Source: Escherichia coli 042 (GTDB lineage Bacteria; Pseudomonadota; Gammaproteobacteria; Enterobacterales; Enterobacteriaceae). Taken from it: a stretch of DNA of 64,000 nucleotides. How positions within the stretch are numbered: position 1 is the stretch's first letter; each line of letters opens with the position of its first letter. Shown piece after piece: positions 1 through 23,110 of the stretch. The stretch lies in NCBI RefSeq assembly GCF_000027125.1, contig NC_017626.1; one strand, given 5' to 3'. Both the position numbers and the translations under genes were made by a program. The notes beneath the pieces are model-generated. The model made no database searches. It was not told the DNA's origin and worked only from the letters and a program-made list of their open reading frames with translations.

Positions 1-435
1 CGCCAGACCCGTCGCCGGGCGGGGCCGCTACAAGCCGTCACACAAATCGTCGCTGTCGTGGGCATCGCATTGTGTGTCGCCAGCTTTCTGTTGAAAACGC
101 ACCAGCTACTGCTGTTTTACCCGGTAGTGGTTAACGCGATCATGCTGGCGGTTTTTGGCGGTTCGCTGTGGTCGACAATGCCGATAGTTGAGCGGCTGGC
201 ACGTTTGCAGGAGCCAGACCTCCCGGAAAAGGGCGTGCGCTATACCCGCCGTGTCACGCAAATCTGGTGCGGCTTTTTCATCATTAACGGCGGAATTGCC
301 CTCTTTACCGCGCTTTATGGCGATATGTCGTTATGGACCGCCTGGAACGGCATGATTGCTTATTTTTTGATGGGAACGTTAATGGCAGGTGAATGGCTGG
401 TGCGCCGTCAGGTGATAAAAAGAGATCGCTCATGA
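1..435 (+). CDS. Small integral membrane protein of the APE cluster, probably 5'-truncated by the window edge (first in-window ATG at 58)
   Basis: Frame 1 is open from base 1 with no stop; the translation shows an arginine-rich stretch followed by hydrophobic helices; stop overlaps the next gene start (ATGA at 432-435). Position corresponds to apeG in the described ape gene order. Confidence 0.5.
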   Translation, partial: RQTRRRAGPLQAVTQIVAVVGIALCVASFLLKTHQLLLFYPVVVNAIMLAVFGGSLWSTMPIVERLARLQEPDLPEKGVRYTRRVTQIWCGFFIINGGIALFTALYGDMSLWTAWNGMIAYFLMGTLMAGEWLVRRQVIKRDRS

Positions 436-1793: not shown

Positions 1794-2133
1794 AATCGAG
1801 CGCCATCAGGCACAAGCGAATCACCTTGAGATTGTTTTGCATCTCAGGGCAGATCTGTTCTGGTTTCGCGGCCATTTTGCCGTGCAGCCGTTACTCCCAG
1901 GAGTTGCACAAATCGACTGGGCGATGAGCTACGCGCTCACTCTGCTCGCGCCTGGCTGGCGTTTTCACTCTATTCAGAACATCAAATTCCAGTCCCCGTT
2001 GCTGCCGGACAACCGCGTCACGCTCACGCTTAACTGGCAGGAAGAACGCCAGATTCTGAGCTTTAGCTATCAGCGTCACGACGGTGACGCCCGCCACACC
2101 GCCAGTAGCGGGAAGATCCGCCTATGTCGGTAA
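1780..2133 (+). CDS. apeI: Hotdog-fold 3-hydroxyacyl-ACP dehydratase-like protein (FabZ/FabA-like)
   Basis: ORF 1750-2133; probable start ATG 1780 (MKPHEIERH) overlapping upstream stop. FabZ-like motif FRGHFAVQPLLPGVAQIDW. Confidence 0.65.
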   Translation: MKPHEIERHQAQANHLEIVLHLRADLFWFRGHFAVQPLLPGVAQIDWAMSYALTLLAPGWRFHSIQNIKFQSPLLPDNRVTLTLNWQEERQILSFSYQRHDGDARHTASSGKIRLCR

Positions 2134-3800
2134 ACTTTTCTCCCTGCGTGTTGATCCCCTGCTACAACCACGGCGCGATGATGCCGGGCGTGCTGGCGCG
2201 TCTTAAGCCATTTAATCTGCCCTGTATTGTAGTGGATGACGGCAGCGATGCCGCCACGCAACAGCAACTGGATAATCTGGTTGCCGAACAGCCTGGCGTG
2301 ACCTTAATTCGCCTGGCAGAAAACGCAGGCAAAGGCGCGGCAGTGATGCGTGGCTTACAGGCAGCGGCAGACGCGGGCTTCAGCCATGCGGTGCAGGTGG
2401 ATGCTGACGGTCAGCACGCGATTGAAGACATCCCTAAACTGCTGGCACTCGCTGAACAGCAGCCTGCGGCGCTGATCTCCGGCCAGCCGATTTACGATGA
2501 CTCCATCCCCCGCTCACGGCTGTACGGGCGCTGGGTCACCCACGTGTGGGTATGGATCGAAACGCTCTCCCTGCAACTGAAAGACAGTATGTGCGGCTTT
2601 CGCGTTTATCCGGTTGCGCCAACGCTGCAACTGGCAAAATACGCTACCATCGGCAAGCGGATGGATTTTGACACCGAAGTGATGGTGCGCCTCTACTGGC
2701 AGGGAAATACCAGTTATTTCGTGCCGACCCGCGTCACCTATCCGCTGGACGGGCTTTCGCATTTTGATGCCCTGAAAGATAACGTCCGCATCTCGCTGAT
2801 GCACACACGTCTGTTTTTCGGCATGTTGCCGCGTATTCCTTCACTGCTGATGCGCCACTCTTCCAGCCACTGGGCGCGGCAGAGCGAAGTGAAAGGGTTA
2901 TGGGGAATGCGCCTGATGCTGCTGGTCTGGCGTCTGCTGGGAAGAACTGCGTTTACCGCGCTGCTTTACCCGGTGGTGGGCGTCTACTGGCTCACCGCTG
3001 CTCGTGCACGTAAAGCGTCGCAAGACTGGCTCGCCCGTGTGCGCCAACAACAACCACAGGCAGCAAAACTCAACAGCTATCAGCATTTTCTACGTTTCGG
3101 CAACGCCATGCTCGACAAAATCGCCAGCTGGCGCGGCGAGCTGCAACTCGGGCGTGATGTGCTGTTTGCACCAGGCGCAGAAGCGGCACTTAACGTCAGC
3201 GATCCGCGCGGCAAATTGCTGCTGGCCTCGCATCTTGGCGATGTGGAAGTGTGCCGGGCGCTGGCAAAAATTCAGGGCTACAAAACCATTAACGCGCTGG
3301 TGTTTAGCGAAAACGCCCAACGCTTTAAACAGATAATGCAGGAGATGGCCCCGCAGGCAGGCATCAACCTGCTCCCGGTAACAGATATCGGCCCGGAAAC
3401 CGCCATCCTGCTGAAAGAGAAGCTGGATAACGGCGAATGGGTGGCGATTGTCGGTGACCGCATCGCCGTCAACCCGCAACGCGGCGGCGACTGGCGCGTC
3501 TGCTGGAGTCCGTTTATGGGCCAGCCTGCGCCTTTCCCACAGGGGCCGTTTATTCTTGCGTCTATTTTGCGCTGCCCGGTGAATCTGATTTTCGCCCTGC
3601 GCCAGCACGGCAAGCTGCATATTCACTGCGAAACCTTTGCCGACCCGCTGCTGTTGCCGCGTGGCGAACGCCAGCAGGCGCTGCAAAACGCTATCGATCA
3701 TTACGCCGCGCGTCTGGAACATTACGCGCTCCAGTCGCCCCTCGACTGGTTTAATTTTTTCGATTTCTGGCAACTGCCGGAAGTCCAGGACAAGGAGTAA
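2124..3800 (+). CDS. apeJ: Fused family-2 glycosyltransferase / lysophospholipid-type acyltransferase
   Basis: 558 aa ORF; N-terminal GT2-like region (CVLIPCYNHG ... IVVDDGSDA), long C-terminal acyltransferase-like domain. Confidence 0.75.
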   Translation: MSVNFSPCVLIPCYNHGAMMPGVLARLKPFNLPCIVVDDGSDAATQQQLDNLVAEQPGVTLIRLAENAGKGAAVMRGLQAAADAGFSHAVQVDADGQHAIEDIPKLLALAEQQPAALISGQPIYDDSIPRSRLYGRWVTHVWVWIETLSLQLKDSMCGFRVYPVAPTLQLAKYATIGKRMDFDTEVMVRLYWQGNTSYFVPTRVTYPLDGLSHFDALKDNVRISLMHTRLFFGMLPRIPSLLMRHSSSHWARQSEVKGLWGMRLMLLVWRLLGRTAFTALLYPVVGVYWLTAARARKASQDWLARVRQQQPQAAKLNSYQHFLRFGNAMLDKIASWRGELQLGRDVLFAPGAEAALNVSDPRGKLLLASHLGDVEVCRALAKIQGYKTINALVFSENAQRFKQIMQEMAPQAGINLLPVTDIGPETAILLKEKLDNGEWVAIVGDRIAVNPQRGGDWRVCWSPFMGQPAPFPQGPFILASILRCPVNLIFALRQHGKLHIHCETFADPLLLPRGERQQALQNAIDHYAARLEHYALQSPLDWFNFFDFWQLPEVQDKE

Positions 3801-3803
3801 AGG

Positions 3804-4226
3804 GTGCTTAACGATCCCCGATTTACCGCTGAAGTCGAGCTGACCATTCCCTTTCACGACGTCGATATGATGGGCGTGGCCTGGCACGGTAACTATTTTC
3901 GCTACTTTGAAGTGGCCCGCGAGGCGCTGCTCAACCAGTTCAATTACGGCTATCGGCAGATGAAAGAGTCCGGTTATTTGTGGCCAGTGGTCGATGCGCG
4001 GGTGAAATATCGCCACGCCCTCACCTTTGAGCAACGCATCCGCGTGCGTGCACATATCGAAGAGTTCGAAAACCGTCTGCGGATTGGCTATCAGATTTTC
4101 GATGCCGAAACGGGCAAACGCGCCACCACCGGATACACCATTCAGGTCGCGGTCGACGAGCAAAGCCGCGAACTGTGCTTTGTCAGCCCCGATATTTTGT
4201 TTGAACGCATGGGAGTCAAACCATGA
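3804..4226 (+). CDS. apeK: Hotdog-fold acyl-CoA/ACP thioesterase (4-hydroxybenzoyl-CoA thioesterase / YbgC-like)
   Basis: 140 aa ORF with GTG start; FHDVDMMGVAWHGNYFRYFEVAREALL resembles the YbgC/4HBT thioesterase core. Confidence 0.7.
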   Translation: MLNDPRFTAEVELTIPFHDVDMMGVAWHGNYFRYFEVAREALLNQFNYGYRQMKESGYLWPVVDARVKYRHALTFEQRIRVRAHIEEFENRLRIGYQIFDAETGKRATTGYTIQVAVDEQSRELCFVSPDILFERMGVKP

Positions 4227-4828
4227 AATTTTTACCACTGCTGGCGCTGCTGATTAGCCCGTTTGTGAGCGCCCTGAACCTGGACGATCTTCAGCAACGC
4301 TTTACCGAACAGCCGGTGATCCGCGCTCATTTCGATCAAACCCGGACGATTAAAGATCTGCCGCAGCCGCTACGATCTCAGGGCCAGATGTTGATCGCCC
4401 GCGACCAGGGGCTGTTGTGGGATCAAACCTCACCATTTCCCATGCAACTATTGCTGGACGATAAACGCATGGTGCAGGTGATCAACGGTCAGCCGCCGCA
4501 AATCATCACGGCAGAAAATAACCCGCAGATGTTCCAGTTTAACCACCTGCTGCGCGCGCTGTTCCAGGCCGATCGCAAAGTGCTGGAACAAAATTTCCGC
4601 GTCGAATTTGCTGACAAAGGCGAAGGCCGCTGGACACTGCGCCTGACGCCGACCACCACGCCGCTGGATAAAATTTTCAACACCATCGATCTCGCCGGGC
4701 AAACCTATCTGGAGAGCATTCAGCTTAATGATAAACAGGGCGATCGCACCGATATCGCTCTTACCCAACATCAACTGACGCCAGCGCAACTGACCGATGA
4801 CGAACGCCAACGTTTTGCCGCCCAGTAA
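4223..4828 (+). CDS. apeL: LolA-like periplasmic lipoprotein-carrier family protein
   Basis: 201 aa ORF with N-terminal signal peptide (MKFLPLLALLISPFVSALN); start overlaps apeK stop. Confidence 0.7.
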   Translation: MKFLPLLALLISPFVSALNLDDLQQRFTEQPVIRAHFDQTRTIKDLPQPLRSQGQMLIARDQGLLWDQTSPFPMQLLLDDKRMVQVINGQPPQIITAENNPQMFQFNHLLRALFQADRKVLEQNFRVEFADKGEGRWTLRLTPTTTPLDKIFNTIDLAGQTYLESIQLNDKQGDRTDIALTQHQLTPAQLTDDERQRFAAQ

Positions 4829-7115
4829 ACGCCCGGCGCTGTTATGGGGGATCGTCTGCCTGGTCATGGCGGCGGCGTTGCTGATCCTGTTGCCGCAATC
4901 ACGACTGAACAGTAGCGTGCTGGCTATGTTACCCAAACAGGCGATGGGCGATATTCCTCCAGCGCTGAATGACGGCTTTATGCAGCGTCTGGACCGCCAA
5001 CTGGTGTGGCTGGTCAGCCCCGGTAAAGAGGCTAATCCCAGGGTGGCTCAGGAGTGGCTGACGCTGCTGCAAAAATCCGCTGCGCTCGGCGACGTTAAAG
5101 GGCCAATGGATGCCGCCAGCCAGCAGGCGTGGGGAGCGTTTTTCTGGCAGCACCGCAACGGCCTGGTTGACCCCGACACCCGCGCGCGCCTGCAAAACGG
5201 CGGCGAAGCGCAGGCGCAGTGGATCCTCTCCCAGCTTTATTCTGCGTTCTCCGGGGTAAGCGGTAAGGAGCTGCAAAACGATCCGCTGATGTTAATGCGT
5301 GGCTCGCAGCTGGCGATGGCGAAAAACGGCCAGCGTTTGCGGCTGATGGACGGCTGGCTGGTGACGCAGGATCCCCAGGGCAACTACTGGTATCTGCTGC
5401 ACGGCGAACTGGCGGGATCGTCGTTTGATATGCAGCAAACCCACCAGCTCATCACGACCCTGAATACGCTGGAAAAGGATCTGAAAACGCGTTACCCGCA
5501 GGCGCAGTTGCTCTCGCGCGGCACGGTGTTTTACAGCGATTACGCCAGCCAACAGGCGAAGCAGGATATCTCCAACCTGGGCGTGGCAACGCTGCTGGGG
5601 GTGATATTACTGATTGTGGCGGTGTTCCGCTCTTTACGCCCATTGCTGCTTTGCGTGATTTCCATCGGCATCGGCGCGCTGGCGGGAACGGTCGCCACCT
5701 TGTTGATTTTCGGCGAATTACACCTGATGACGCTGGTGATGAGCATGAGCGTTATCGGCATTTCCGCTGACTACACGCTCTATTACCTCACCGAGCGGAT
5801 GGTGCACGGCAATGACGTTTCGCCGTGGCAAAGCCTGGCGAAAGTGCGCAATGCCCTGCTGCTGGCGCTGCTCACCACCGTGGCGGCGTATCTGATTATG
5901 ATGCTCGCCCCCTTCCCCGGCATTCGCCAGATGGCGATTTTTGCCGCCGTCGGGTTGAGCGCCTCCTGTCTGACCGTCCTGTTCTGGCATCCGTGGCTGT
6001 GCCGTGGCCTGCCGGTGCGTCCGGTTCCGGCGATGGCGCTGATGCTGCGCTGGCTGGCTGCGTGGCGGCGTAATAAAAAACTGTCGCTGGGTCTGCCCGT
6101 CGCGCTGGCGCTGTTTTCGCTGGCGGGGATGTCAATGCTGCGCGTCGACGACGATATCTCGCAGTTACAGGCGCTACCGCAGCATATTCTGGCCCAGGAG
6201 AAAGCCATTACCGCCCTGACCGGACAAAGCGTCGATCAAAAATGGTTTGTAGTTTACGGCGACTCTCCACAGCAAACATTGCGGCGGCTGGAGAAATTTA
6301 CCGCCTCGCTGGAGAATGCGAAAAAAGAGGGGCTTATCAGCAACTACCGCACCATTCCGCTGAACTCCCTGGCGCGGCAGGAGGAAGATTTACATCTGCT
6401 GAAAACGGCTGCCCCGACAGTAACAAAAGCACTGCAAAATGCCGGGCTGGCGGCAGTGAATCCGGATCTCAACGCCATGCCAGTGAAGGTCGATGAATGG
6501 CTGGCAAGCCCCGCCAGTGAAGGCTGGCGTCTGCTGTGGCTGACGCTGAAAAACGGCGAAAGCGGCGTACTGGTGCCGGTTGAAGGGGTTAAAAGTAGCG
6601 CGTTGTTGCAGGAAATCGCCAGCGATTACCCTGGCGGCATTGCCTGGGTTGATCGCAAAAGCACCTTTGATGAGTTGTTCGCACTTTACCGCTACGTCTT
6701 AACCGGTTTGTTGCTGGTGGCGCTGGCGGTGATTGCCTGCGGCGCAGTGGCCCGCCTCGGCTGGCGCAAAGGGCTTATCAGCCTGGTGCCTTCGGTACTT
6801 TCGCTGGGCTGCGGTCTGGCAGTGCTGGCGATGAGCGGGCAGGCGGTGAATCTCTTTTCGCTACTGGCGCTGGTGCTGGTGCTTGGCATCGGCATCAATT
6901 ACACGCTGTTTTTCAGTAATCCGCGCGGTACACCGTTAACTTCCCTACTGGCGATCACGCTGGCAATGCTCACCACCTTGCTGGCGCTGGGAATGCTGGT
7001 ATTCAGCGCCACCCAGGCCATCAGCAGTTTTGGCATTGTGCTGGTGAGCGGTATTTTCACCGCCTTCCTGCTTTCGCCGCTGGCTATGCCCGATAAAAAG
7101 AGAACAAAAAAATGA
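4797..7115 (+). CDS. apeM: MMPL/RND-superfamily membrane exporter
   Basis: 772 aa ORF with two blocks of multiple hydrophobic helices separated by large soluble domains (RND/MMPL topology). Confidence 0.75.
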   Translation: MTNANVLPPSKRPALLWGIVCLVMAAALLILLPQSRLNSSVLAMLPKQAMGDIPPALNDGFMQRLDRQLVWLVSPGKEANPRVAQEWLTLLQKSAALGDVKGPMDAASQQAWGAFFWQHRNGLVDPDTRARLQNGGEAQAQWILSQLYSAFSGVSGKELQNDPLMLMRGSQLAMAKNGQRLRLMDGWLVTQDPQGNYWYLLHGELAGSSFDMQQTHQLITTLNTLEKDLKTRYPQAQLLSRGTVFYSDYASQQAKQDISNLGVATLLGVILLIVAVFRSLRPLLLCVISIGIGALAGTVATLLIFGELHLMTLVMSMSVIGISADYTLYYLTERMVHGNDVSPWQSLAKVRNALLLALLTTVAAYLIMMLAPFPGIRQMAIFAAVGLSASCLTVLFWHPWLCRGLPVRPVPAMALMLRWLAAWRRNKKLSLGLPVALALFSLAGMSMLRVDDDISQLQALPQHILAQEKAITALTGQSVDQKWFVVYGDSPQQTLRRLEKFTASLENAKKEGLISNYRTIPLNSLARQEEDLHLLKTAAPTVTKALQNAGLAAVNPDLNAMPVKVDEWLASPASEGWRLLWLTLKNGESGVLVPVEGVKSSALLQEIASDYPGGIAWVDRKSTFDELFALYRYVLTGLLLVALAVIACGAVARLGWRKGLISLVPSVLSLGCGLAVLAMSGQAVNLFSLLALVLVLGIGINYTLFFSNPRGTPLTSLLAITLAMLTTLLALGMLVFSATQAISSFGIVLVSGIFTAFLLSPLAMPDKKRTKK

Positions 7116-7696
7116 TCAAACCCACATTCTGGCGAGCGTTCGCCCTGACCGCTACGCTTATCCTCACCGGCTGTAGCCACTCGCAACCGGAACAGGAAGG
7201 TCGCCCACAGGCGTGGCTGCAACCTGGCACGCGCATCACGCTGCCGGCACCAGGGATTTCGCCCGCCGTTAATTCCCAGCAACTATTGAGCGGCAGCTTC
7301 AACGGCAAAACCCAGTCTCTGCTAGTGATGCTTAACGCCGACGACCAGAAAATCACCCTTGCCGGGCTGTCGTCGGTCGGCATTCGTCTGTTTCTGGTGA
7401 CCTACGATGCGCAAGGGCTACGCGCCGAGCAATCCATCGTCGTCCCACAGTTGCCGCCCGCAAGTCAGGTGCTGGCTGACGTGATGCTTAGCCACTGGCC
7501 GATTAGCGCCTGGCAACCGCAACTCCCCGCTGGATGGACGCTTCGCGACAACGGTGACAAACGCGAACTGCGTAACGCCAGCGGCAAACTGGTCACGGAA
7601 ATCACCTATCTGAATCGCCAGGGAAAACGCGTGCCAATCAGCATTGAACAGCATGTCTTTAAATACCACATCACCATTCAATATTTAGGTGACTGA
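7112..7696 (+). CDS. apeN: Lipoprotein of unknown function (APE-cluster)
   Basis: 194 aa ORF; signal peptide with lipobox LILTGC; start overlaps apeM stop. Confidence 0.65.
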   Translation: MIKPTFWRAFALTATLILTGCSHSQPEQEGRPQAWLQPGTRITLPAPGISPAVNSQQLLSGSFNGKTQSLLVMLNADDQKITLAGLSSVGIRLFLVTYDAQGLRAEQSIVVPQLPPASQVLADVMLSHWPISAWQPQLPAGWTLRDNGDKRELRNASGKLVTEITYLNRQGKRVPISIEQHVFKYHITIQYLGD

Positions 7697-7697
7697 T

Positions 7698-8867
7698 ATG
7701 ATTTACATTTCCGCCGTCGGCATGATCAACGCCCTGGGAAATAACCTTGACGATATCGCAGCCAACCTGACTCGCGGTGTCGCTCCCGGCATGCGCCCGC
7801 GCGCAGGCTGGTTGCAGGGGCATCCGCAGGCGGTCCTGGCTGGCGTGGATGGCGAGCTTCCGGTTATCCCGGAAAAATTCGCTGCGCACCGCTCGCGCAA
7901 CAATCAGATCCTGCTGGCGGCGCTGGCGCAGATCCAGCCGCAGGTTGATGACGCTATTGCGAAATATGGCCGCGAGCGCATCGCGATTGTGCTTGGCACC
8001 AGCACCTCCGGCCTGCATGAAGGCGACACGCACGTTAACCTGCGCACCCACGGGCAGCCGAGCACCACGTGGCACTATGCACAACAAGAGCTCGGCGATC
8101 CGTCGCGTTTTCTCAGCCACTGGCTGGCGCTCGACGGCCCAGCTTATACCCTTTCAACCGCCTGCTCCTCCAGTGCCAGAGCGATGATCAGCGGGCGCAG
8201 GCTTATCGAGGCGGGGCTGGTCGATGCCGCCATTGTGGGTGGTGCAGACACCCTGAGCCGAATGCCGATTAACGGTTTTCACAGCCTCGAATCGCTCTCG
8301 CCAACCTTATGTCAGCCGTTTGGTCGTGACCGCGCGGGCATCACCATTGGCGAAGGTGCGGGGCTGATGCTGTTGACCCGCGAACCGCAGCCCATCGCCT
8401 TGCTGGGCGTCGGTGAATCGAGCGACGCTTATCATATTTCGGCCCCGCATCCACAGGGCGAAGGCGCAATTCGCGCCATTAACCAGGCGCTGGCTGATGC
8501 GCAGCTTACGCCGGATGAGGTGGGCTATATCAACCTGCACGGCACCGCCACACAACTCAACGACCAGATTGAATCGATGGTGGTAAACGCCCTGTTTGGC
8601 GAACGCGTACCGTGCAGCTCCACCAAACATTTGACCGGACACACGCTGGGCGCAGCGGGCATTACCGAAGCGGCAATCAGTATGTTGATCTTAGAGCGTG
8701 ATTTACCGCTGCCCGCTCAGGACTTCAGCCTGTCGCCGCGCGATCCCACGCTGCCACCGTGCGGCATTATCGAACAACCACAGCCGCTGGCACGTCCGGT
8801 GATCCTGTCCAATTCCTTCGCCTTTGGCGGCAATAACGCCAGCATTCTGCTCGGGAGGGTTTCGTGA
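7698..8867 (+). CDS. apeO: Beta-ketoacyl-ACP synthase (KS) of APE cluster
   Basis: ORF 7689-8867; ATG at 7698 follows upstream stop (7694-7696). Active-site-Cys context TLSTACSSS and HGTAT motif, thiolase fold. Confidence 0.8.
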   Translation: MIYISAVGMINALGNNLDDIAANLTRGVAPGMRPRAGWLQGHPQAVLAGVDGELPVIPEKFAAHRSRNNQILLAALAQIQPQVDDAIAKYGRERIAIVLGTSTSGLHEGDTHVNLRTHGQPSTTWHYAQQELGDPSRFLSHWLALDGPAYTLSTACSSSARAMISGRRLIEAGLVDAAIVGGADTLSRMPINGFHSLESLSPTLCQPFGRDRAGITIGEGAGLMLLTREPQPIALLGVGESSDAYHISAPHPQGEGAIRAINQALADAQLTPDEVGYINLHGTATQLNDQIESMVVNALFGERVPCSSTKHLTGHTLGAAGITEAAISMLILERDLPLPAQDFSLSPRDPTLPPCGIIEQPQPLARPVILSNSFAFGGNNASILLGRVS

Positions 8868-9328
8868 GCCACTATTTATCCCCCGGCGCTTATCTGCCCC
8901 ACGACGCGCCCATGTTACTGCTGGAAGAAGTGGTGAGCGTCAGCGATGACAGCGCGGTGTGCCGTGTAACGGTCTCGCCCAGTGGCGTACTGGCACCGTT
9001 TCTCGACCCGGACGGCAATCTCCCTGGCTGGTTTGCCCTTGAATTGATGGCGCAAACCGTCGGCGTCTGGTCTGGCTGGCATCGCCACCAGCAGGGCAAA
9101 AACAGTATTGAGTTAGGGATGGTACTGGGCGCACGTGAATTGCTTTGCGCCGCTGGCATTCTGCCCGCAGGCCAGACGCTGACCATTACCGTCAAACTCC
9201 TGATGCAAGACGATCGCTTCGGCAGTTTTGAGTGCAGCATCAACAACGGCACGGCAACGGGCCGCATTAACACCTTCCAGCCGACCGCGGAAGAACTTAC
9301 CACCCTGTTTCAACAAGGAGCGTCCTGA
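8864..9328 (+). CDS. apeP: Hotdog-fold dehydratase (FabA/FabZ-like)
   Basis: 154 aa ORF, GTG start overlapping apeO stop; LPHDAPMLLLEEV N-terminus typical of hotdog dehydratases. Confidence 0.65.
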   Translation: MSHYLSPGAYLPHDAPMLLLEEVVSVSDDSAVCRVTVSPSGVLAPFLDPDGNLPGWFALELMAQTVGVWSGWHRHQQGKNSIELGMVLGARELLCAAGILPAGQTLTITVKLLMQDDRFGSFECSINNGTATGRINTFQPTAEELTTLFQQGAS

Positions 9329-10059
9329 TGAGTCGTTCAGTTCTGGTTACTGGTGCCAGCAAAGGCATTGGTCGCGCCATCGCCTGCCAACTGGCGGCAG
9401 ACGGCTTTAATATTGGCGTTCACTATCACCGTGACGCCACAGGCGCTCAGGAAACGCTAAATGCCATTGTCGCCAACGGGGGTAACGGGCGTTTGCTCAG
9501 TTTCGACGTCGCAAACCGCGAACAGTGTCGGGAAGTGCTGGAGCACGAAATCGCGCAAAACGGTGCCTGGTACGGCGTGGTTAGTAACGCCGGGATCGCC
9601 CGCGATGCCGCTTTTCCGGCTTTAAGCGATGACGACTGGGATGCGGTGATCCACACCAATCTCGACAGTTTCTACAACGTTATTCAGCCGTGCATTATGC
9701 CGATGATCGGCACACGCCAGGGTGGACGCATCATCACGCTGTCCTCGGTTTCCGGCGTGATGGGCAATCGCGGACAGGTGAACTACAGCGCTGCCAAAGC
9801 CGGAATTATCGGCGCAACAAAAGCACTGGCTATCGAACTCGCGAAGCGCAAAATCACCGTCAACTGCATCGCGCCGGGGCTTATTGATACCGGGATGATC
9901 GAAATGGAAGAGAGCGCCCTGAAAGAGGCAATGTCGATGATCCCCATGAAACGCATGGGCCAGGCGGAAGAAGTTGCCGGGCTTGCCAGCTATTTAATGT
10001 CTGATATTGCGGGTTACGTCACCCGCCAGGTTATTTCCATCAACGGAGGGATGTTATGA
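9328..10059 (+). CDS. apeQ: 3-oxoacyl-ACP reductase (FabG-like SDR)
   Basis: 243 aa; Rossmann motif VLVTGASKGIGRAIA, catalytic YSAAK, NAG motif. Confidence 0.85.
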   Translation: MSRSVLVTGASKGIGRAIACQLAADGFNIGVHYHRDATGAQETLNAIVANGGNGRLLSFDVANREQCREVLEHEIAQNGAWYGVVSNAGIARDAAFPALSDDDWDAVIHTNLDSFYNVIQPCIMPMIGTRQGGRIITLSSVSGVMGNRGQVNYSAAKAGIIGATKALAIELAKRKITVNCIAPGLIDTGMIEMEESALKEAMSMIPMKRMGQAEEVAGLASYLMSDIAGYVTRQVISINGGML

Positions 10060-11285
10060 CACGTCGCGTAGTGATTACAGGAATGGGCGGCGTGACTGCC
10101 TTTGGTGAAAACTGGCAGGACGTTTCCGCGCGTCTGCTGGCGTATGAGAATGCAGTGCGCAAAATGCCGGAGTGGCAGGTCTACGATGGTCTGCACACCC
10201 TGCTTGGCGCGCCTGTTGATGATTTCACGCTACCGGAGCACTACACCCGCAAGCGTATCCGTGCGATGGGCCGCGTGTCGCAAATGTCGACCCGTGCCAG
10301 CGAGCTGGCGTTAGAGCAGGCAGGATTGATTGGCGATCCGATATTAACCAGCGGCGAAACGGGCATTGCGTACGGTTCATCGACCGGCAGTACCGGTCCG
10401 GTGAGCGAATTTGCCACCATGCTGACGGAAAAGCACACCAATAACATCACCGGCACCACCTATGTACAGATGATGCCGCACACCACCGCCGTTAATACCG
10501 GTCTGTTTTTCGGCCTGCGCGGGCGGGTGATCCCGACCTCCAGCGCCTGTACCTCCGGCAGCCAGGCGATCGGTTATGCGTGGGAAGCCATTCGCCACGG
10601 TTATCAAACGGTGATGGTTGCTGGTGGTGCCGAAGAGTTATGCCCTTCAGAAGCAGCGGTATTTGATACACTTTTCGCCACCAGCCAGCACAATGATGCG
10701 CCGAAAACCACACCTTCACCGTTCGATGAAAACCGCGACGGGCTGGTGATTGGTGAAGGCGCAGGTACGCTGATTCTTGAAGAACTGGAGCACGCCAAAG
10801 CGCGCGGCGCGACCATTTACGGTGAAATCGTCGGCTTTGCGACTAACTGCGACGCGGCACATATTACCCAGCCTCAGCGTGAGACCATGCAATATTGTAT
10901 GGAAAAATCGTTAAAAATCGCCGGGTTAAGTGCAAGTGATATCGGCTATATTTCGGCGCATGGTACGGCGACCGATCGTGGTGATATGGCAGAAAGTCTG
11001 GCGACAGCAACCATTTACGGTGATAATGTGCCGCTCTCCTCGCTGAAAAGTTATTTTGGTCATACGCTTGGTGCCTGTGGCGCGCTCGAAGCCTGGATGA
11101 GTCTGCAAATGATGCGCGAAGGTTGGTTTGCGCCTACGCTAAACCTGAATAAACCAGACCCGAACTGTGGCGCGCTGGATTACATCATGCATGAAGCCCG
11201 CAAGGTTGATTGTGAGTTTTTGCAGAGTAACAACTTTGCCTTTGGCGGCATTAATACATCCATCATCATTAAACGTTGGCCCTGA
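10056..11285 (+). CDS. apeR: Beta-ketoacyl-ACP synthase I/II-like (FabB/FabF family)
   Basis: 409 aa; active-site Cys context SSACTSGSQAIG, HGTAT and GHTLGACGA motifs. Confidence 0.85.
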   Translation: MTRRVVITGMGGVTAFGENWQDVSARLLAYENAVRKMPEWQVYDGLHTLLGAPVDDFTLPEHYTRKRIRAMGRVSQMSTRASELALEQAGLIGDPILTSGETGIAYGSSTGSTGPVSEFATMLTEKHTNNITGTTYVQMMPHTTAVNTGLFFGLRGRVIPTSSACTSGSQAIGYAWEAIRHGYQTVMVAGGAEELCPSEAAVFDTLFATSQHNDAPKTTPSPFDENRDGLVIGEGAGTLILEELEHAKARGATIYGEIVGFATNCDAAHITQPQRETMQYCMEKSLKIAGLSASDIGYISAHGTATDRGDMAESLATATIYGDNVPLSSLKSYFGHTLGACGALEAWMSLQMMREGWFAPTLNLNKPDPNCGALDYIMHEARKVDCEFLQSNNFAFGGINTSIIIKRWP

Positions 11286-11286
11286 T

Positions 11287-11874
11287 ATGTATCGGATAGT
11301 TCTGGGGAAAGTTTCGACCTTAAGCGCAGCTCCACTGCCACCGGCTTTACGCGATCAAGCACCGCAAGGTCCACGACGCGAACGCTGGCTGGCGGGGCGT
11401 GCATTACTTTCGCACACGCTTTCCCCGCTACCGGAGATCATCTATGGCGAACAAGGCAAACCGGCATTCGCGCCGGAAACGCCGCTATGGTTCAACTTAA
11501 GCCATAGCGGTGACGATATCGCCCTGCTGTTGAGCGATGAAGGCGAAGTCGGCTGCGATATCGAAGTGATTCGCCCGCGCGCCAACTGGCGCTGGCTGGC
11601 GAACGCCGTGTTCAGCCTCGGGGAACACGCTGAGATGGACGCCGTGCATCCCGATCAGCAACTGGAAATGTTCTGGCGCATCTGGACGCGCAAAGAAGCC
11701 ATCGTTAAACAGCGTGGCGGCAGCGCCTGGCAAATCGTCAGCGTAGACAGCACCTATCACTCATCACTGTCAGTCAGCCATTGTCAGCTAGAAAATTTAA
11801 GCCTGGCGATCTGCACCCCTACCCCCTTTACGCTCTCCGCCGACAGTGTGCAATGGATCGATTCAGTTAACTGA
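11287..11874 (+). CDS. acpT: 4'-phosphopantetheinyl transferase AcpT
   Basis: ORF 11167-11874; ATG 11287 gives a 195 aa product (MYRIVLGKVSTLSAAPLP...) matching E. coli AcpT as recalled; immediately downstream of the ape genes. Confidence 0.85.
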   Translation: MYRIVLGKVSTLSAAPLPPALRDQAPQGPRRERWLAGRALLSHTLSPLPEIIYGEQGKPAFAPETPLWFNLSHSGDDIALLLSDEGEVGCDIEVIRPRANWRWLANAVFSLGEHAEMDAVHPDQQLEMFWRIWTRKEAIVKQRGGSAWQIVSVDSTYHSSLSVSHCQLENLSLAICTPTPFTLSADSVQWIDSVN

Positions 11875-11898
11875 TCCGCCCACCCGACTGCCCATCTA

Positions 11899-11912
11899 TT
11901 GATCCAGAACAG
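11899..11912 (+). promoter_or_regulatory. FNR-like half-palindrome (TTGAT-N4-AACAG) upstream of nikA
   Basis: ttgatccagaacag read in the acpT-nikA intergenic region; nik is known to be anaerobically induced via FNR. Imperfect match. Confidence 0.3.
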
Positions 11913-11919
11913 GTAATCA

Positions 11920-11947
11920 GTATGACGAATACTTAAAATCGTCATAC
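11920..11947 (+). promoter_or_regulatory. NikR operator (GTATGA-N16-TCATAC)
   Basis: Exact dyad gtatga cgaatacttaaaatcg tcatac read directly, about 40 bp upstream of the nikA start; matches the known NikR recognition pattern. Confidence 0.8.
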
Positions 11948-11984
11948 TTATTTCCGCCATCTATTTTAATCCATTGGGGTTACC

Positions 11985-13559
11985 ATGTTCTCTACACTCC
12001 GCCGCACTCTATTTGCGCTGCTGGCTTGTGCGTCTTTTATCGTCCATGCCGCTGCACCAGATGAAATCACCACCGCCTGGCCGGTGAATGTCGGGCCACT
12101 AAACCCGCACCTTTACACGCCTAACCAGATGTTCGCCCAGAGCATGGTTTATGAACCATTGGTGAAATATCAGGCAGACGGTTCGGTGATCCCGTGGCTG
12201 GCAAAAAGCTGGACCCATTCGGAAGATGGCAAAACCTGGACCTTCACCCTGCGTGATGACGTGAAATTCTCCAACGGCGAACCGTTTGATGCAGAGGCGG
12301 CGGCAGAAAACTTCCGCGCAGTGCTCGATAACCGTCAACGTCACGCCTGGCTGGAGCTGGCAAACCAGATTGTTGATGTCAAAGCACTCAGTAAAACAGA
12401 GCTGCAAATCACCCTGAAAAGCGCCTACTATCCTTTCCTGCAAGAACTGGCCCTGCCACGCCCTTTCCGTTTTATCGCCCCCTCGCAGTTTAAAAACCAT
12501 GAAACCATGAACGGAATTAAAGCGCCGATTGGCACCGGGCCGTGGGTTTTGCAGGAATCGAAACTGAATCAGTACGATGTCTTCGTCCGTAACGAAAACT
12601 ACTGGGGCGAAAAGCCGGCGATTAAGAAGATCACTTTTAACGTGATCCCGGACCCGACTACCCGCGCGGTGGCGTTTGAAACTGGCGATATTGACCTGCT
12701 GTACGGAAACGAAGGGTTATTACCGCTCGATACCTTCGCCCGCTTTAGCCAGAACCCGGCTTACCACACCCAACTGTCACAGCCGATCGAAACCGTGATG
12801 CTGGCGCTCAATACCGCCAAAGCCCCCACCAACGAGCTGGCAGTACGTGAAGCTCTTAATTACGCGGTAAACAAAAAATCGCTGATTGATAACGCGTTGT
12901 ATGGCACCCAGCAGGTCGCCGACACCCTGTTTGCTCCTTCTGTGCCCTATGCCAACCTCGGCCTGAAACCGCGCCAGTACGATCCGCAGAAAGCGAAAGC
13001 GTTGCTGGAAAAAGCCGGTTGGACGTTGCCTGCGGGCAAAGACATCCGCGAGAAAAATGGTCAGCCGCTGCGCATTGAACTGTCGTTCATCGGCACCGAT
13101 GCGTTAAGCAAATCGATGGCGGAAATCATTCAGGCTGATATGCGCCAGATTGGCGCAGATGTCTCACTGATTGGCGAAGAAGAGAGCAGTATCTATGCTC
13201 GTCAGCGCGACGGTCGTTTTGGCATGATTTTCCATCGCACCTGGGGCGCGCCATACGATCCACACGCCTTCCTGAGTTCAATGCGCGTACCGTCGCACGC
13301 TGATTTCCAGGCACAGCAAGGATTAGCCGACAAGCCGCTGATTGATAAAGAGATCGGCGAAGTGCTGGCAACCCATGACGAAACGCAACGTCAGGCGCTG
13401 TATCGCGACATTCTGACCCGTCTGCATGACGAGGCGGTTTATCTGCCTATCAGTTACATCTCAATGATGGTGGTATCAAAACCGGAGCTGGGTAACATCC
13501 CCTACGCGCCGATCGCCACCGAAATTCCGTTCGAACAGATTAAACCGGTGAAACCTTAA
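11985..13559 (+). CDS. nikA: Periplasmic nickel-binding protein NikA
   Basis: 524 aa ORF with signal peptide; family-5 solute-binding protein; first gene of the nik operon. Confidence 0.95.
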
Positions 13560-14499
13560 TGTTGCGTTACGTATTACGCCGCTTTCTGCTGCTGATCCCG
13601 ATGGTGCTCGCCGCCTCGGTGATCATTTTTCTGATGCTGCGCCTCGGCACCGGCGACCCGGCGCTCGATTATCTGCGTCTGTCTAACCTGCCGCCGACGC
13701 CGGAGATGCTGGCCTCTACACGCACCATGCTGGGGCTGGATCAGCCGCTGTATGTCCAGTACGGCACCTGGTTGTGGAAGGCGCTGCATCTTGACTTTGG
13801 TATCTCATTCGCCAGCCAACGCCCGGTGCTGGACGATATGCTGAACTTCCTGCCCGCCACGCTGGAACTTGCAGGTGCCGCGCTGGTATTAATTCTGCTC
13901 ACTTCCGTACCGCTCGGTATCTGGGCGGCGCGCCATCGCGATCGTCTGCCGGATTTCGCCGTACGTTTCATCGCGTTTCTCGGCGTGTCGATGCCCAACT
14001 TCTGGCTGGCGTTTTTGCTGGTGATGGCGTTTTCGGTATATCTGCAATGGCTACCCGCGATGGGCTACGGCGGCTGGCAGCACATCATTTTGCCTGCGGT
14101 TTCCATTGCCTTTATGTCGCTGGCGATTAATGCACGGCTACTGCGCGCCAGCATGCTGGACGTCGCCGGTCAGCGTCACGTGACCTGGGCGCGGCTACGC
14201 GGCCTGAATGACAAACAGACCGAGCGTCGTCATATTCTGCGCAATGCCTCGCTGCCGATGATCACCGCCGTGGGGATGCACATTGGCGAACTGATTGGCG
14301 GGACGATGATTATCGAAAACATCTTTGCCTGGCCGGGCGTCGGGCGCTATGCGGTGTCGGCGATTTTTAACCGTGACTATCCGGTGATCCAGTGCTTTAC
14401 GCTGATGATGGTGGTGGTTTTTGTGGTCTGTAATTTGATTGTTGATTTGCTCAACGCCGCGCTGGACCCGCGCATTCGTCGTCATGAAGGAGCCCACGC

Positions 14500-14503
<4 letters not shown>
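13559..14503 (+). CDS. nikB: Nickel ABC transporter permease NikB
   Basis: 314 aa polytopic permease; translationally coupled to nikA. Confidence 0.95.
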
Positions 14504-17306
<2,803 letters not shown>

Positions 17307-17504
17307 CACCTCCCAACGCGCCGTTATTTCCTGACGGCGCAGTAGACTTCTGCCAAATATCGACTCACGTCACATTTTTTTGATCACGATTTAGTCCCCT
17401 AAAATGTGAGACGCTTCGATCCTCTTTTTCGCCTGTTCACCTACTATACGCTTGAAGTTGTCCATGATTGTCCATAGACAACTGTAAATGTTCAGGTGCG
17501 CGCC

Positions 17505-18251
17505 ATGAAATCATTGAGTAAGTCGTCACAAATACCGCTCTATCAACAAGTGGTGGAGTGGATAAGAGAAAATATTTATACCGGGGATCTGGTGGAAGAC
17601 GATCGCATTCCTTCGGAATACCAGATTATGGATATGCTGGAAGTGAGTCGGGGAACCGTTAAAAAAGCTGTCGCCCAACTGGTAAAACAAGGCGTGTTGA
17701 TTCAGGTCCAGGGGAAGGGAACATTTGTCAAAAAAGAGAACGTGGCATATCCGTTAGGTGAAGGATTATTGTCATTCGCGGAATCGCTGGAAAGCCAGAA
17801 AATACACTTTACCACTGAAGTTATTACGTCACGGATTGAACCGGCTAATCGTTATGTGGCAGAGAAATTAAGAATAACGCCCGGTCAGGATATTCTTTAC
17901 CTTGAGCGTTTACGTTCAATTGGTGATGAAAAAGCGATGCTGATAGAGAACCGTATCAATATTGAGCTATGCCCCGGCATCGTGGAAATCGATTTTAATC
18001 AACACAATTTATTTCCAACAATAGAAAGTTTGTCGAAAAGAAAAATTCGTTACTCGGAAAGTCGCTATGCCGCGCGATTAATTGGTAATGAACGCGGTCA
18101 TTTTTTAGATATCTGTGAAGATGCACCCGTTTTGCATCTGGAGCAATTAGTCTTTTTCTCCCGAGAGTTACCCGTTGAGTTTGGCAACGTCTGGTTAAAA
18201 GGAAATAAATATTATCTGGGCACCGTGCTGCAACGGCGGGAATTGAGTTAA
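17505..18251 (+). CDS. GntR-family transcriptional regulator (HTH + UTRA effector domain)
   Basis: ORF 17496-18251; HTH segment EYQIMDMLEVSRGTVKKAVAQLVKQGVL; precedes the PTS genes. Confidence 0.75.
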   Translation: MKSLSKSSQIPLYQQVVEWIRENIYTGDLVEDDRIPSEYQIMDMLEVSRGTVKKAVAQLVKQGVLIQVQGKGTFVKKENVAYPLGEGLLSFAESLESQKIHFTTEVITSRIEPANRYVAEKLRITPGQDILYLERLRSIGDEKAMLIENRINIELCPGIVEIDFNQHNLFPTIESLSKRKIRYSESRYAARLIGNERGHFLDICEDAPVLHLEQLVFFSRELPVEFGNVWLKGNKYYLGTVLQRRELS

Positions 18252-18275
18252 ATACACTTTTTTATGAGGAATAAA

Positions 18276-18749
18276 ATGCAAGGCATACAGTTTCAGGAAA
18301 ATTATATTCAACGACTTCCGGCAGGGTTAAGCGTTGAACAGATCATCCGTCAGTTAGCGCAACCGTTGGTTGCTGCTGAGCTGGTGGTCCCTGATTTTGC
18401 CGATCACGTACTGAAACGTGAGGCGACGTACCCAACGGGGCTGCCTACCGAACCACCGTGCGTCGCCATTCCGCACACGGACCATAAATATGTCAGGCAC
18501 AATGCAATTGCCGTCGGCATCCTTCCGGAACCGGTAGAGTTTGCCGATATGGGCGGCGATCCTGACCCCGTACATGTCAGGGTGATTTTTTTGCTCGCCT
18601 TAAGTGAAAGTAATAAACAATTAAATGCCCTGGGCTGGATTATGGAGATGATTCAGGATACGCCCTTTATGCGCGCCCTGCTTACGATGGAAACAACAGA
18701 AATACACACAGTAATCTTAAACAAAATGAAAGAACGAGGTGAAATATGA
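18276..18749 (+). CDS. PTS EIIA component (fructose/mannitol/galactitol type)
   Basis: ORF 18264-18749; ATG 18276 has a GAGGA RBS; phosphorylatable His context AIPHTDH. Confidence 0.75.
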   Translation: MQGIQFQENYIQRLPAGLSVEQIIRQLAQPLVAAELVVPDFADHVLKREATYPTGLPTEPPCVAIPHTDHKYVRHNAIAVGILPEPVEFADMGGDPDPVHVRVIFLLALSESNKQLNALGWIMEMIQDTPFMRALLTMETTEIHTVILNKMKERGEI

Positions 18750-19027
18750 GTCAAACCATTTTATTTGTCTGCGCCACGGGTATAGCCACATCCACGGCGG
18801 TAACAGAAAAAGTCATGGAATATTGTAAAGAGCACGGTCTTAACGTCAATTATTCCCAAACCAACGTTGCCTCTTTACCTGGAAATACTGACGGCGTAGC
18901 ACTGGTAGTCTCAACGACTAAAGTGCCTTATGAACTCGACGTCCCGGTGGTTAACGGCTTGCCGATTATTACCGGTATTGGCGAAGAGAAAGTACTGGCG
19001 CAAATTGTTTCGATCCTTAAAAAGTAA
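18746..19027 (+). CDS. PTS EIIB component (galactitol type, Cys-phosphorylated)
   Basis: 93 aa; N-terminal ILFVCATGIATS motif typical of GatB-like EIIB. Confidence 0.8.
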   Translation: MSQTILFVCATGIATSTAVTEKVMEYCKEHGLNVNYSQTNVASLPGNTDGVALVVSTTKVPYELDVPVVNGLPIITGIGEEKVLAQIVSILKK

Positions 19028-19103
19028 TTAATAATAATTAATTTCAACCCACTCCATCAGGCGCTAACGCGAGGTGCGCTCTCGCCTGAAAAAGAGGTTT
19101 ATT

Positions 19104-20462
19104 ATGAACGATATCGCGCATACCCTCTATAATATTGTGCAATATATATTGGGATTTGGTCCCACGGTAATGTTGCCGTTGGTGTTATTTATTCTTGCTC
19201 TCTTTTTTAAAGTAAAACCCGCTAAAGCCTTACGTTCGTCATTAACGGTCGGCATTGGTTTTGTCGGTATTTATGCCATTTTCGATATTCTTACCAGCAA
19301 TGTCGGGCCAGCGGCCCAGGCGATGGTTGAACGCACCGGAATTAATTTACCGGTGGTGGATTTAGGCTGGCCGCCGCTTTCCGCTATTACATGGGGTTCG
19401 CCAATTGCCCCGTTTGTTATTCCCCTGACTATTCTGATTAACGTGGCGATGCTGGCGTTAAATAAAACCCGCACCGTTGACGTAGATATGTGGAACTACT
19501 GGCATTTTGCCCTTGCCGGTACGCTGGTTTATTACAGCACCGGCAGCCTGTTCTTTGGTTTGCTGGCAGCGGCGATTGCTGCGGTGGTAGTACTTAAACT
19601 CGCCGACTGGTCTGCGCCACTGGTACAAAAATACTTTGGCCTGGAAGGGATCTCTTTGCCGACGCTCTCTTCGGTGGTGTTCTTTCCGGTCGGTCTGTTG
19701 GTCGACAAAATCATCGACCATATCCCCGGCCTCAATCGTATTCATATCGATCCGGAAACCGTACAGAAAAAGTTTGGCATATTCGGCGAACCGATGATGG
19801 TTGGTACTATTCTGGGCATTCTGCTCGGCGTAATTGCCGGATACGATTTCAAAAAAGTCTTGCTGCTTGGCATCAGCATTGGCGGTGTGATGTTCATCCT
19901 GCCACGCATGGTTCGCATTCTGATGGAAGGTTTATTACCGCTGTCTGAAGCCATTAAAAAGTATCTCAATGCCAAATACCCTGACCGTGACGATCTCTAT
20001 ATCGGCCTGGATATCGCCGTTGCCGTAGGTAACCCAGCGATTATCTCCACCGCCCTGCTGCTGACGCCAATCTCGGTCTTTATCGCGTTTGTCCTTCCGG
20101 GTAATGAAGTCCTGCCGCTTGGCGACCTTGCCAACCTGGCGGTAATGGCGTCGATGATTGCTTTAGCCAGCCGTGGCAACATTTTCCGCACCGTTCTGGC
20201 GGCGATTCCGGTGATTATTGCCGATCTGTGGATTGCGACTAAAATCGCGCCGTTTATTACCGGAATGGCGAAAGACGTTAATTTCAAATTTGCCGAAGGC
20301 TCCAGCGGCCAGGTCTCCAGTTTCCTTGATGGCGGTAACCCGTTCCGCTTCTGGCTGCTGGAAATCTTCAACGGCAATCTCATCGCCATTGGTCTGGTGC
20401 CGGTTATCGCCCTGGTACTGTATGGTATTTTCCGAATGACGCGGAGCACGGTTTATGCCTGA
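19104..20462 (+). CDS. PTS EIIC permease (galactitol/GatC-like)
   Basis: ORF 19074-20462; ATG 19104 preceded by AAGAGG RBS; polytopic membrane protein. Confidence 0.8.
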   Translation: MNDIAHTLYNIVQYILGFGPTVMLPLVLFILALFFKVKPAKALRSSLTVGIGFVGIYAIFDILTSNVGPAAQAMVERTGINLPVVDLGWPPLSAITWGSPIAPFVIPLTILINVAMLALNKTRTVDVDMWNYWHFALAGTLVYYSTGSLFFGLLAAAIAAVVVLKLADWSAPLVQKYFGLEGISLPTLSSVVFFPVGLLVDKIIDHIPGLNRIHIDPETVQKKFGIFGEPMMVGTILGILLGVIAGYDFKKVLLLGISIGGVMFILPRMVRILMEGLLPLSEAIKKYLNAKYPDRDDLYIGLDIAVAVGNPAIISTALLLTPISVFIAFVLPGNEVLPLGDLANLAVMASMIALASRGNIFRTVLAAIPVIIADLWIATKIAPFITGMAKDVNFKFAEGSSGQVSSFLDGGNPFRFWLLEIFNGNLIAIGLVPVIALVLYGIFRMTRSTVYA

Positions 20463-21963
20463 TAACAGCGCAGCTATCGTTATCGATATTGGCACCACCA
20501 ATTGCAAAGTCACCTGCTTTTCCTGCCTGGACGCAACGACGTTGGGCGCGCATAAATTCGTGACGGCAAAACAGATCTCCCCACAGGGCAATGTCGATTT
20601 CGATATCGACGCCCTCTGGCAGGAGGTCCGCCAGGCGATAGCGCAACTGAACGCCGCTTCGCCGCTGCCAGTCAGGCGGATAAGCATTGCCAGTTTTGGC
20701 GAGTCAGGCGTGTTCCTTGACGAGCATGGCGAGATCCTGACGCCAATGCTGGCATGGTATGACCGTCGCGGTGAAGAGTATCTGGCTACACTTAGCGAGG
20801 CAGACAGTGCGGCACTTTATGACATTTGCGGGTTACCGCTGCACAGCAATTACTCTGCCTTCAAAATGCGTTGGTTGCTGGAACATTACCCACTGCGTAA
20901 TCGCCGCGGCCTGCGTTGGCTACATGCGCCGGAAGTACTGCTCTGGCGGCTGACCGGCGAACAGCGCACGGATATCACCTTAGCCAGCCGCACGCTGTGT
21001 CTTGACGTGCGCAAAGGCGAATGGTCAGCGAAAGCGGCGGCGTTGTTACACGTTCCCTGTTCAGCATTTGCGCCATTGGTGCAGCCAGGCGAACACGCCG
21101 GATGGGTCAGCGAGTCGCTCTGCAAAACGCTTGGGTTCTCGCAACCGGTCAGCGTGACGCTGGCCGGACATGACCATATGGTGGGTGCGCGAGCGTTGCA
21201 GATGATGCCGGGCGATATCCTTAACTCGACGGGGACCACAGAAGGCATTCTGCAACTGGATACACAACCGACGCTGGATGAACAGGCCAAACGTGACAAG
21301 CTGGCAAACGGCTGTTATTCGCTTGCAAACCAGTTCACCCTGTTTGCGTCGCTGCCCGTGGGCGGTTTCGCTCTGGAGTGGCTGCGTAACACGTTCCGGC
21401 TAACCGATGAGGAGATCGCCGCATCACTTACTCGCGGACATGCGGATTACCTGGCGGGGAACTGGTCGCTCGATGACATTCCCCTCTTTATTCCACATCT
21501 TCGCGGTTCGGGTTCGCCCTATAAAAATCGCCATACTCGTGGATTATTTTATGGGCTTGGCGATACGTTAAATATCGACATGTTAATTGCCAGCGTCTCA
21601 CTGGGATTAACCATGGAATTTGCCAACTGCTTCGCCTGTTTTAATGTGCCTGGCACCAGCGCGTTAAAAGTGATAGGTCCGGCAACCCAAAATCCCCTTT
21701 GGCTGCAATTAAAAGCGGATATTTTACAGCGTCCGGTTGAAGCAATTGCATTTAACGAGGCGGTTTCTGTCGGAGCATTATTAACTGCCGCACCGGATAT
21801 TCCACCGCCGCAAGTTACCATAGCCCAACGTTTGTTACCGAATCGGGCGAGATACCATCAATTACAGCGTTATCAGCACAAATGGAAAAGCTGGTATCAG
21901 TTGAAATTACAGCAAGAAGGCGTGATGCCATTACACCATCGGGAGGAGCACTATGTTGAGTAA
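20455..21963 (+). CDS. FGGY-family carbohydrate kinase (xylulokinase-like)
   Basis: 502 aa; N-terminal AIVIDIGTTNCKV ATPase motif of FGGY kinases; overlaps EIIC stop. Confidence 0.75.
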   Translation: MPDNSAAIVIDIGTTNCKVTCFSCLDATTLGAHKFVTAKQISPQGNVDFDIDALWQEVRQAIAQLNAASPLPVRRISIASFGESGVFLDEHGEILTPMLAWYDRRGEEYLATLSEADSAALYDICGLPLHSNYSAFKMRWLLEHYPLRNRRGLRWLHAPEVLLWRLTGEQRTDITLASRTLCLDVRKGEWSAKAAALLHVPCSAFAPLVQPGEHAGWVSESLCKTLGFSQPVSVTLAGHDHMVGARALQMMPGDILNSTGTTEGILQLDTQPTLDEQAKRDKLANGCYSLANQFTLFASLPVGGFALEWLRNTFRLTDEEIAASLTRGHADYLAGNWSLDDIPLFIPHLRGSGSPYKNRHTRGLFYGLGDTLNIDMLIASVSLGLTMEFANCFACFNVPGTSALKVIGPATQNPLWLQLKADILQRPVEAIAFNEAVSVGALLTAAPDIPPPQVTIAQRLLPNRARYHQLQRYQHKWKSWYQLKLQQEGVMPLHHREEHYVE

Positions 21964-22222
21964 AACCGTGGAGGTCAGAAACAGTACTGGCCTGCATGCA
22001 CGTCCGGCGGCGTGTCTGGTGAAAGCCGCCAAAAAGTTTAGCTGTAAAGTGACGCTGCATTATGAGGGTAATGATATTAATGCCACCAGCATGATGAATA
22101 TTATGCGCGCCGGAATAAAAGGCGGCAAAACGGTGGAAATACGCTGCGAAGGCGATGATGAAAATGAGGCAATACAAACTCTCACCGCCTTATTTCGTGA
22201 TCGCTTCGGTGAAGCTGAATAA
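21953..22222 (+). CDS. HPr-like phosphocarrier protein paralog
   Basis: 89 aa; GLHARPAA motif containing the phosphorylatable His of HPr-family proteins. Confidence 0.75.
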   Translation: MLSKTVEVRNSTGLHARPAACLVKAAKKFSCKVTLHYEGNDINATSMMNIMRAGIKGGKTVEIRCEGDDENEAIQTLTALFRDRFGEAE

Positions 22223-22252
22223 TTAACTGATATTAAAAGATGAGGTTTTCAA

Positions 22253-23104: not shown

Positions 23105-23110
23105 ATCTTC

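Follow-up and report, generated by a model that had tools for sequence, protein, structure and literature searches.

The Locus and Its Neighborhood

The nickel-uptake operon nikABCDE-nikR of Escherichia coli 042 is embedded in a chromosomal neighborhood that differs from that of K-12 on both sides. A reading of this DNA from sequence alone had placed a perfect NikR operator and an adjacent FNR-like element in front of nikA. We analyzed both elements, the genes around them, and their orthologs within and beyond E. coli; "the window" refers to the whole stretch of 64,000 nucleotides under analysis. Both elements lie in the 110-bp intergenic region between acpT and nikA (11875-11984), and the FNR site begins 24 bp past the end of the acpT stop codon. 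The genes concerned are:

11287..11874, + strand: acpT, 4'-phosphopantetheinyl transferase (NCBIfam equivalog NF007676, 395 bits; named acpT in strain 118UI and in K-12)
11985..13559, + strand: nikA, periplasmic nickel-binding protein (ORF of 524 codons with ATG at 11985; NCBIfam TIGR02294, 840 bits)
13559-14503, + strand: nikB, intact ORF, 0 differences from K-12
14500-15333, + strand: nikC, intact ORF, 0 differences from K-12
15333-16097, + strand: nikD, intact ORF, 5 differences from K-12
16094-16900, + strand: nikE, intact ORF, 7 differences from K-12
16905..17306, + strand: nikR, nickel-responsive repressor, 133 aa (NCBIfam equivalogs NF002815 and TIGR02793)

All six nik genes are intact: The span of nikBCDE (13559..16900) is free of internal stops, in agreement with the annotation of strain 118UI, which is ~99.4% identical to window positions 1-26100, and NikA differs from its K-12 counterpart by 3 amino acids. 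NikR is identical to K-12 NikR and has the same sequence as the crystallized protein (PDB 1q5v, 2hza, 2hzv, and 3od2). The fnr gene is absent from the 64-kb window.

On either side of this block the gene content departs from K-12. Where K-12 has the yhhT side 5' of acpT, window positions 1-11266 hold an Ape-like (aryl-polyene/lipid) biosynthesis cluster, which according to the 118UI annotation comprises ketosynthases, FabG2, an ApeP dehydratase, an MMPL transporter, and LolA-like and acyl-carrier proteins. It occurs in 825 of 5426 complete E. coli genomes, O157:H7 among them, and is lacking in K-12. With O157:H7 among its matches, we link the cluster to O-island 138 of O157:H7 (De Lay & Cronan 2006); a literature search on acpT and O-island 138 returned unrelated papers only. 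Where K-12 has rhsB 3' of nikR, window positions 17496-26100 contain genes for a GntR-family regulator, PTS IIA/IIB/IIC components, an FGGY kinase, an HPr-like protein, and a class II aldolase, followed by yhhJ (118UI annotation). Homology to K-12 restarts at window position 11267. Since this breakpoint lies just 5' of acpT and the adjacency of acpT and nikA is as in K-12, the promoter is untouched by the change of neighborhood; the earlier remark that the upstream surroundings (APE cluster) differ from K-12 is correct but has no bearing on the promoter.

Between acpT and nikA, the sequence is 100% identical to that of K-12 (MG1655 and EMG2). Every base is shared, from both sites and the -10 hexamer to the 5' UTR, as are the gene order nikABCDE-nikR and the NikR protein. 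Of 5426 complete E. coli genomes, 5425 matched a 401-bp query around the site, each time with acpT and nikA as the flanking genes, and 5198 of these 5425 share ≥99% identity in the intergenic region. Two divergent variants (99.1% and, at the bottom of the ranking, 98.0% identity) carry changes 5' of TTGAT or in the 5' UTR, which hit neither site. The segment is the textbook nikA promoter, already characterized in K-12, and its identification is correct but not new.

The NikR Operator

The operator is located as follows:

11920..11947, no strand assigned: NikR operator GTATGA-N16-TCATAC (exact match; spans about -26 to +2)

At these positions the window reads gtatgacgaatacttaaaatcgtcatac (= GTATGACGAATACTTAAAATCGTCATAC), so that the exact dyad described earlier is indeed there, is unique in the window, and is identical to that of the K-12 promoter. 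The exact motif occurs once in 64 kb, and 100 dinucleotide-preserving shuffles contain no copy of it. When ≤3 mismatches are allowed, the search yields 20 matches versus 19.7 expected, and all others in the window carry 3 mismatches. The dyad is significant by itself, whereas the FNR-like motif by itself is not.

Ni(II)-NikR binds the palindrome GTATGA-N16-TCATAC of the nikABCDE promoter with nanomolar affinity (review PMC7055735, citing Chivers & Sauer 2000/2002 and Bloom & Zamble 2004), and a comparative study gives GTATGAT-N13/14-ATCATAC as the consensus of enterobacterial NikR operators (PMC545781). Judged by its sequence, the dyad and the NikR operator published for E. coli are one and the same. 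With the operators of other Enterobacterales (PMC545781) it shares the half-sites, the 16-bp gap between the 6-mers, the placement over an invariant TAnAAT, and a TTGAT 21 bp 5'; it differs in the base after the left half-site, which is C in Escherichia (GTATGAC) and T in most other genera (GTATGAT). The attributes of an E. coli-type operator are found together, i.e. a 16-bp-spaced repeat, a location in the core promoter of a nickel-uptake operon, and an intact cognate NikR. Nickel-dependent NikR binding and repression have been reported for the identical K-12 sequence (PMC7055735; PMC9434800) and, by analogy, presumably apply here.

The dyad ends 37 bp before the nikA ATG and encloses the -10 hexamer as well as the putative start site. 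Rather than lying far from the promoter core, an arrangement that would have spoken against the assignment, it covers the -10 region from -26 to +2, given a start at ~11946.

The Proposed FNR Site and the Promoter Geometry

The remaining promoter elements are:

11899..11912, no strand assigned: putative FNR site TTGATccagAACAG (8/10 matches to TTGAT-N4-ATCAA; centre at 11905.5, i.e. -40.5 from the putative start)
11911..11916, + strand: hexamer AGGTAA at the -35 position (2/6 matches; poor and variable among 69 loci)
11934..11939, + strand: -10 hexamer TAAAAT (5/6 matches to TATAAT; -12 to -7, inside the operator spacer)
11946, + strand: putative transcription start (centre 11905.5 plus the published 40.5; 39 nt 5' of the ATG)

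At 11899-11912 the window reads ttgatccagaacag (= TTGATCCAGAACAG). The left half-site is perfect, and the right half-site is AACAG where the consensus has ATCAA (3/5). With ≤2 mismatches to TTGAT-N4-ATCAA the window contains 58 matches versus 33 expected, and taken alone the FNR-like motif is indistinguishable from chance. The significance of the site derives from its position, its conservation, and published ChIP data, not from the motif.

In a genome-scale ChIP-seq study of K-12, Myers et al. classify nikABCDE as directly FNR-activated (category 1) with one FNR site at -40.5, and list more sigma-70 occupancy and more expression without O2 (PMC3688515, Table 1). The FNR peak at nik was found by 4 of 4 peak callers (PMC3688515, Table S5). 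From the aerobic to the anaerobic condition the sigma-70 peak rises from 68.7 to 1896.9, i.e. ~28-fold, and the aerobic/anaerobic expression ratio of nikA is 0.030, which corresponds to a ~33-fold anaerobic increase (PMC3688515, supplement Tables S2 and S12). Moreover, nikA is described as repressed by NikR as nickel rises and as Fnr-dependent under anaerobic conditions (PMC9434800). Full-text searches of the literature for the literal sequence of the FNR site, and for texts joining nikA, NikR, and FNR with a transcription start, gave no match.

The published peaks can be placed on the window by way of the K-12 chromosome, where the nikA ATG is position 3,613,667 in NC_000913.3. The older U00096.2 used by Myers et al. 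is taken to be ~1,977 bp shorter 5' of this point, a value checked approximately, against the nirB site. With this offset the centre of the FNR-like element, 79.5 bp 5' of the ATG, converts to ~3,611,610.5 in the old coordinates. The published centres of the nik FNR peaks are 3,611,605 and 3,611,593 (PMC3688515), within about 6-18 bp of the element. For calibration, the perfect FNR box of nirB lies ~25 bp off its listed peak, so that the agreement at nikA is within the error of the method. With the same offset, the anaerobic-specific sigma-70 peak at 3,611,651 falls about 39 bp 5' of the nikA ATG, which is window position 11946. The coincidence of the TTGAT element with the single K-12 ChIP-seq FNR site at -40.5 is thus supported, and from the published table value and the ChIP peak we infer a transcription start at about 11946. 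The FNR-like TTGAT-N4-AACAG that the sequence-only reading had pointed out just 5' of the dyad matches this site.

Counted from its centre, the FNR site is 28.5 bp away from the first base of the -10 hexamer (11905.5 to 11934), which corresponds to the published -40.5. Relative to the putative start, the site falls within the class II range of -41.5 ± 4 and is accompanied by a weak -35. A scan for a sigma-70 consensus promoter and for terminators between 11700 and 12100 found none; the lack of a consensus promoter and the poor -35 are what an activator-dependent promoter would be expected to show. The arrangement is shared with the class II FNR promoters of nirB, dmsA, and narG, in which FNR is centred ~41 bp 5' of the start, the -35 is poor, and sigma-70 is anaerobic-specific (PMC3688515). 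Two features set nikA apart: its right half-site (AACAG) is weak, with a PWM ln(p) of -9.55 versus -16.52 for nirB, and, unlike in these three promoters, the operator of a metal-sensing repressor is stacked directly 3' of the FNR site.

Elsewhere in the window, the sole perfect FNR consensus (TTGATAAAAATCAA) is located at 58676-58689, ~110 bp 5' of the heme-transport gene shuT/chuT, and a Fur-box-like sequence, GATAATCATGATCATTCTC, follows ~80 bp 3' of it. We know of no report of anaerobic control of the shuT/chuT heme-uptake promoter.

Phylogenetic Footprint of the nikA Promoter

A search with NikA yielded 80 loci from distinct species, 68 of which are dyad-bearing loci of Enterobacterales. 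Together with the window these constitute the footprint set of 69 promoters (67 distinct sequences), which were aligned without gaps and anchored on the dyad. Outside the window, the dyad has 0-1 mismatch in 67 of the 68 Enterobacterales loci and 2 mismatches in the remaining one (L027); all of them have a spacing of 16. The distance from the start of TTGAT to the dyad is exactly 21 bp in 65 of the 67 distinct promoters, the exceptions being L053 and L063. Inside the operator spacer, TAnAAT (T, A, A, A, T) is invariant throughout the 67 distinct promoters. The columns of TTGATCC carry 1.4-2.0 bits, and in the right half of the FNR site 76% of the promoters have C at position 12 and 100% have A at position 13. 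Taken together, TTGATCC, C12/A13, both half-sites of the dyad, and TAnAAT range from 1.2 to 2.0 bits, the flanking columns from ~0 to 0.6 bits, and at the -35 position the 69 loci show no conserved hexamer. The alignment confirms that, across Enterobacterales, the predicted FNR site keeps a constant register with the -10 hexamer and the NikR operator. This register supports the class II reading of the FNR site and argues against a chance match.

Beyond Enterobacterales, the nikA loci of Rhizobiales and Halomonas (L069-L075 and L077) have a GTATGA-N15/16-TCATAC dyad 5' of nikA with 0-1 mismatch, and TTGAT is absent from these loci at the enterobacterial offset. This distribution suggests that the coupling to FNR is specific to Enterobacterales and that nikA of Rhizobiales and Halomonas has a different promoter layout without it. 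Several of these loci have a TTGAC motif a few bases 3' instead.

Conservation within the FNR site is unevenly distributed. In the 67 promoters, the N4 spacer and the adjoining base (window 11901-11907, TTGATCCAG) show C in 96%, C in 87%, A in 78%, and G in 79%. The spacer is conserved more than the right half-site, and no constraint from FNR would be expected at these bases. As a result, the FNR half-site contains a conserved GATC (Dam) site.

Proposed Regulation and Alternative Explanations

The segment is very probably the core promoter of nikABCDE-nikR, unchanged from K-12, activated by FNR in the absence of oxygen and repressed by NikR in the presence of nickel. Without oxygen, FNR would bind TTGATccagAACAG at -40.5, the class II position that overlaps the missing -35, and would recruit sigma-70 RNA polymerase to TAAAAT, with transcription starting at ~11946. 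Ni-NikR is a tetramer with two ribbon-helix-helix DNA-binding domains. Once nickel is sufficient, Ni-NikR would bind both GTATGA half-sites, 16 bp apart; stretching from -26 to +2, the bound repressor would cover the -10 hexamer and the start, so that polymerase is presumably excluded by occlusion and synthesis of the transporter stops. Repression would be partly autoregulatory because nikR is the last gene of its own operon. Of this scheme, the present analysis provides the sequences, the identity to K-12, the conservation, the geometry, and the intactness of the nik genes. For NikR binding, FNR occupancy, and FNR-dependent expression under anaerobiosis we rely on published work on the K-12 promoter, whose sequence is identical; where exactly transcription starts and how occlusion works are deductions. 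The earlier claim that the locus confirms intact nickel-responsive and anaerobic control is consequently right in both of its assignments, nikR being identical to K-12, yet it overstates what a sequence can show.

We weighed this scheme against two other explanations of the TTGAT element. According to one of them, TTGATC (11899-11904) is, or doubles as, the -35 hexamer of an FNR-independent sigma-70 promoter with the left NikR half-site as its -10 (TATGAC, 11921-11926), a 16-bp spacer, and a start near 11933; NikR would still repress such a promoter by covering its -10. The combination TTGATC-N16-TATGAT (4/6 and 5/6 to consensus) is present in 49 of the 69 orthologous loci, and nikA responds to nickel under aerobic conditions as well (PMC9434800), so that some FNR-independent transcription exists. 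Escherichia, though, has TATGAC, in which the critical final T is missing, and the consensus scan gave no promoter. Nor would a plain -35 account for the conserved C at 11910 and the invariant A at 11911 or for a TAnAAT that never varies, and it disagrees with the ~28-fold higher anaerobic sigma-70 occupancy, with the cross-linking of FNR at the nik promoter (PMC3688515), and with the published FNR position of -40.5, which implies a start downstream of ~11933. We regard this explanation as distinctly improbable for the promoter as a whole; a minor FNR-independent contribution from TTGATC-N16-TATGAC is possible.

The other explanation holds that TTGAT-N4-AACAG resembles an FNR site by chance and that anaerobic induction of nik is indirect or proceeds via another site. 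The frequency of matches of equal quality (58 versus 33 expected) and the weak right half-site (3/5) would fit a chance resemblance; the offset of TTGAT from the dyad, by contrast, is fixed in all but 2 of 67 distinct promoters amid near-random flanks, the ChIP-seq peak is centred ~6-18 bp away from the site, inside the nirB-calibrated error, and the site sits at the canonical class II distance from a conserved -10. We rejected the chance match on the phylogenetic footprint and consider it hardly credible. The FNR-activated, NikR-repressed promoter is therefore the explanation we retain. The strain carries the standard nickel-uptake control region, a result of little significance beyond annotation; as a consequence, the supply of nickel to [NiFe] hydrogenases should be regulated as in K-12 despite the different flanking clusters.

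A Candidate NarL Site

A further element overlaps the right NikR half-site and the putative start:

11945..11951, + strand: candidate NarL heptamer TACTTAT (7/7 matches to TACYYMT)

Repression of nikA by NarL has been reported, with the site neither mapped nor detected (PMC2718512). Counting both strands, the 64 kb contain 23 perfect TACYYMT heptamers (a simple count of 0.36 per kb), and TACTTAT is perfect in 23 of the 69 orthologous loci. Four further NarL heptamers with 1 mismatch lie in or near the nikA core promoter, and a search for a 7-2-7 inverted pair of NarL heptamers at the nikA promoter found none. We consider it rather unlikely that the reported nitrate repression of nikABCDE acts through TACTTAT as the NarL operator not yet mapped; if it does, FNR, NikR, and NarL would be stacked in the nikA core promoter within 55 bp.

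Altered nikA Promoters in Other Escherichia Strains

Two of the orthologous loci have undergone larger changes 5' of nikA. In Escherichia sp. MOD1-EC7003 (L007, ~2350-2480), an insertion of ~112 bp separates the operator from the ribosome-binding site in the nikA 5' UTR, so that the dyad lies 177 bp 5' of the ATG as opposed to 65 bp without the insertion; in our estimation the insert resembles an ERIC/IRU repeat. In Escherichia sp. E1V33 (L004, 2200-2511), tandem GC-rich repeats (CCCCTCGCCCCTCTGGGGAGAGGG...) replace the region upstream of nikA: The FNR site, the left half-site of the dyad, and the -10 hexamer are missing, and nikA itself is 99% identical. This locus may represent a natural disruption of the nikA promoter.
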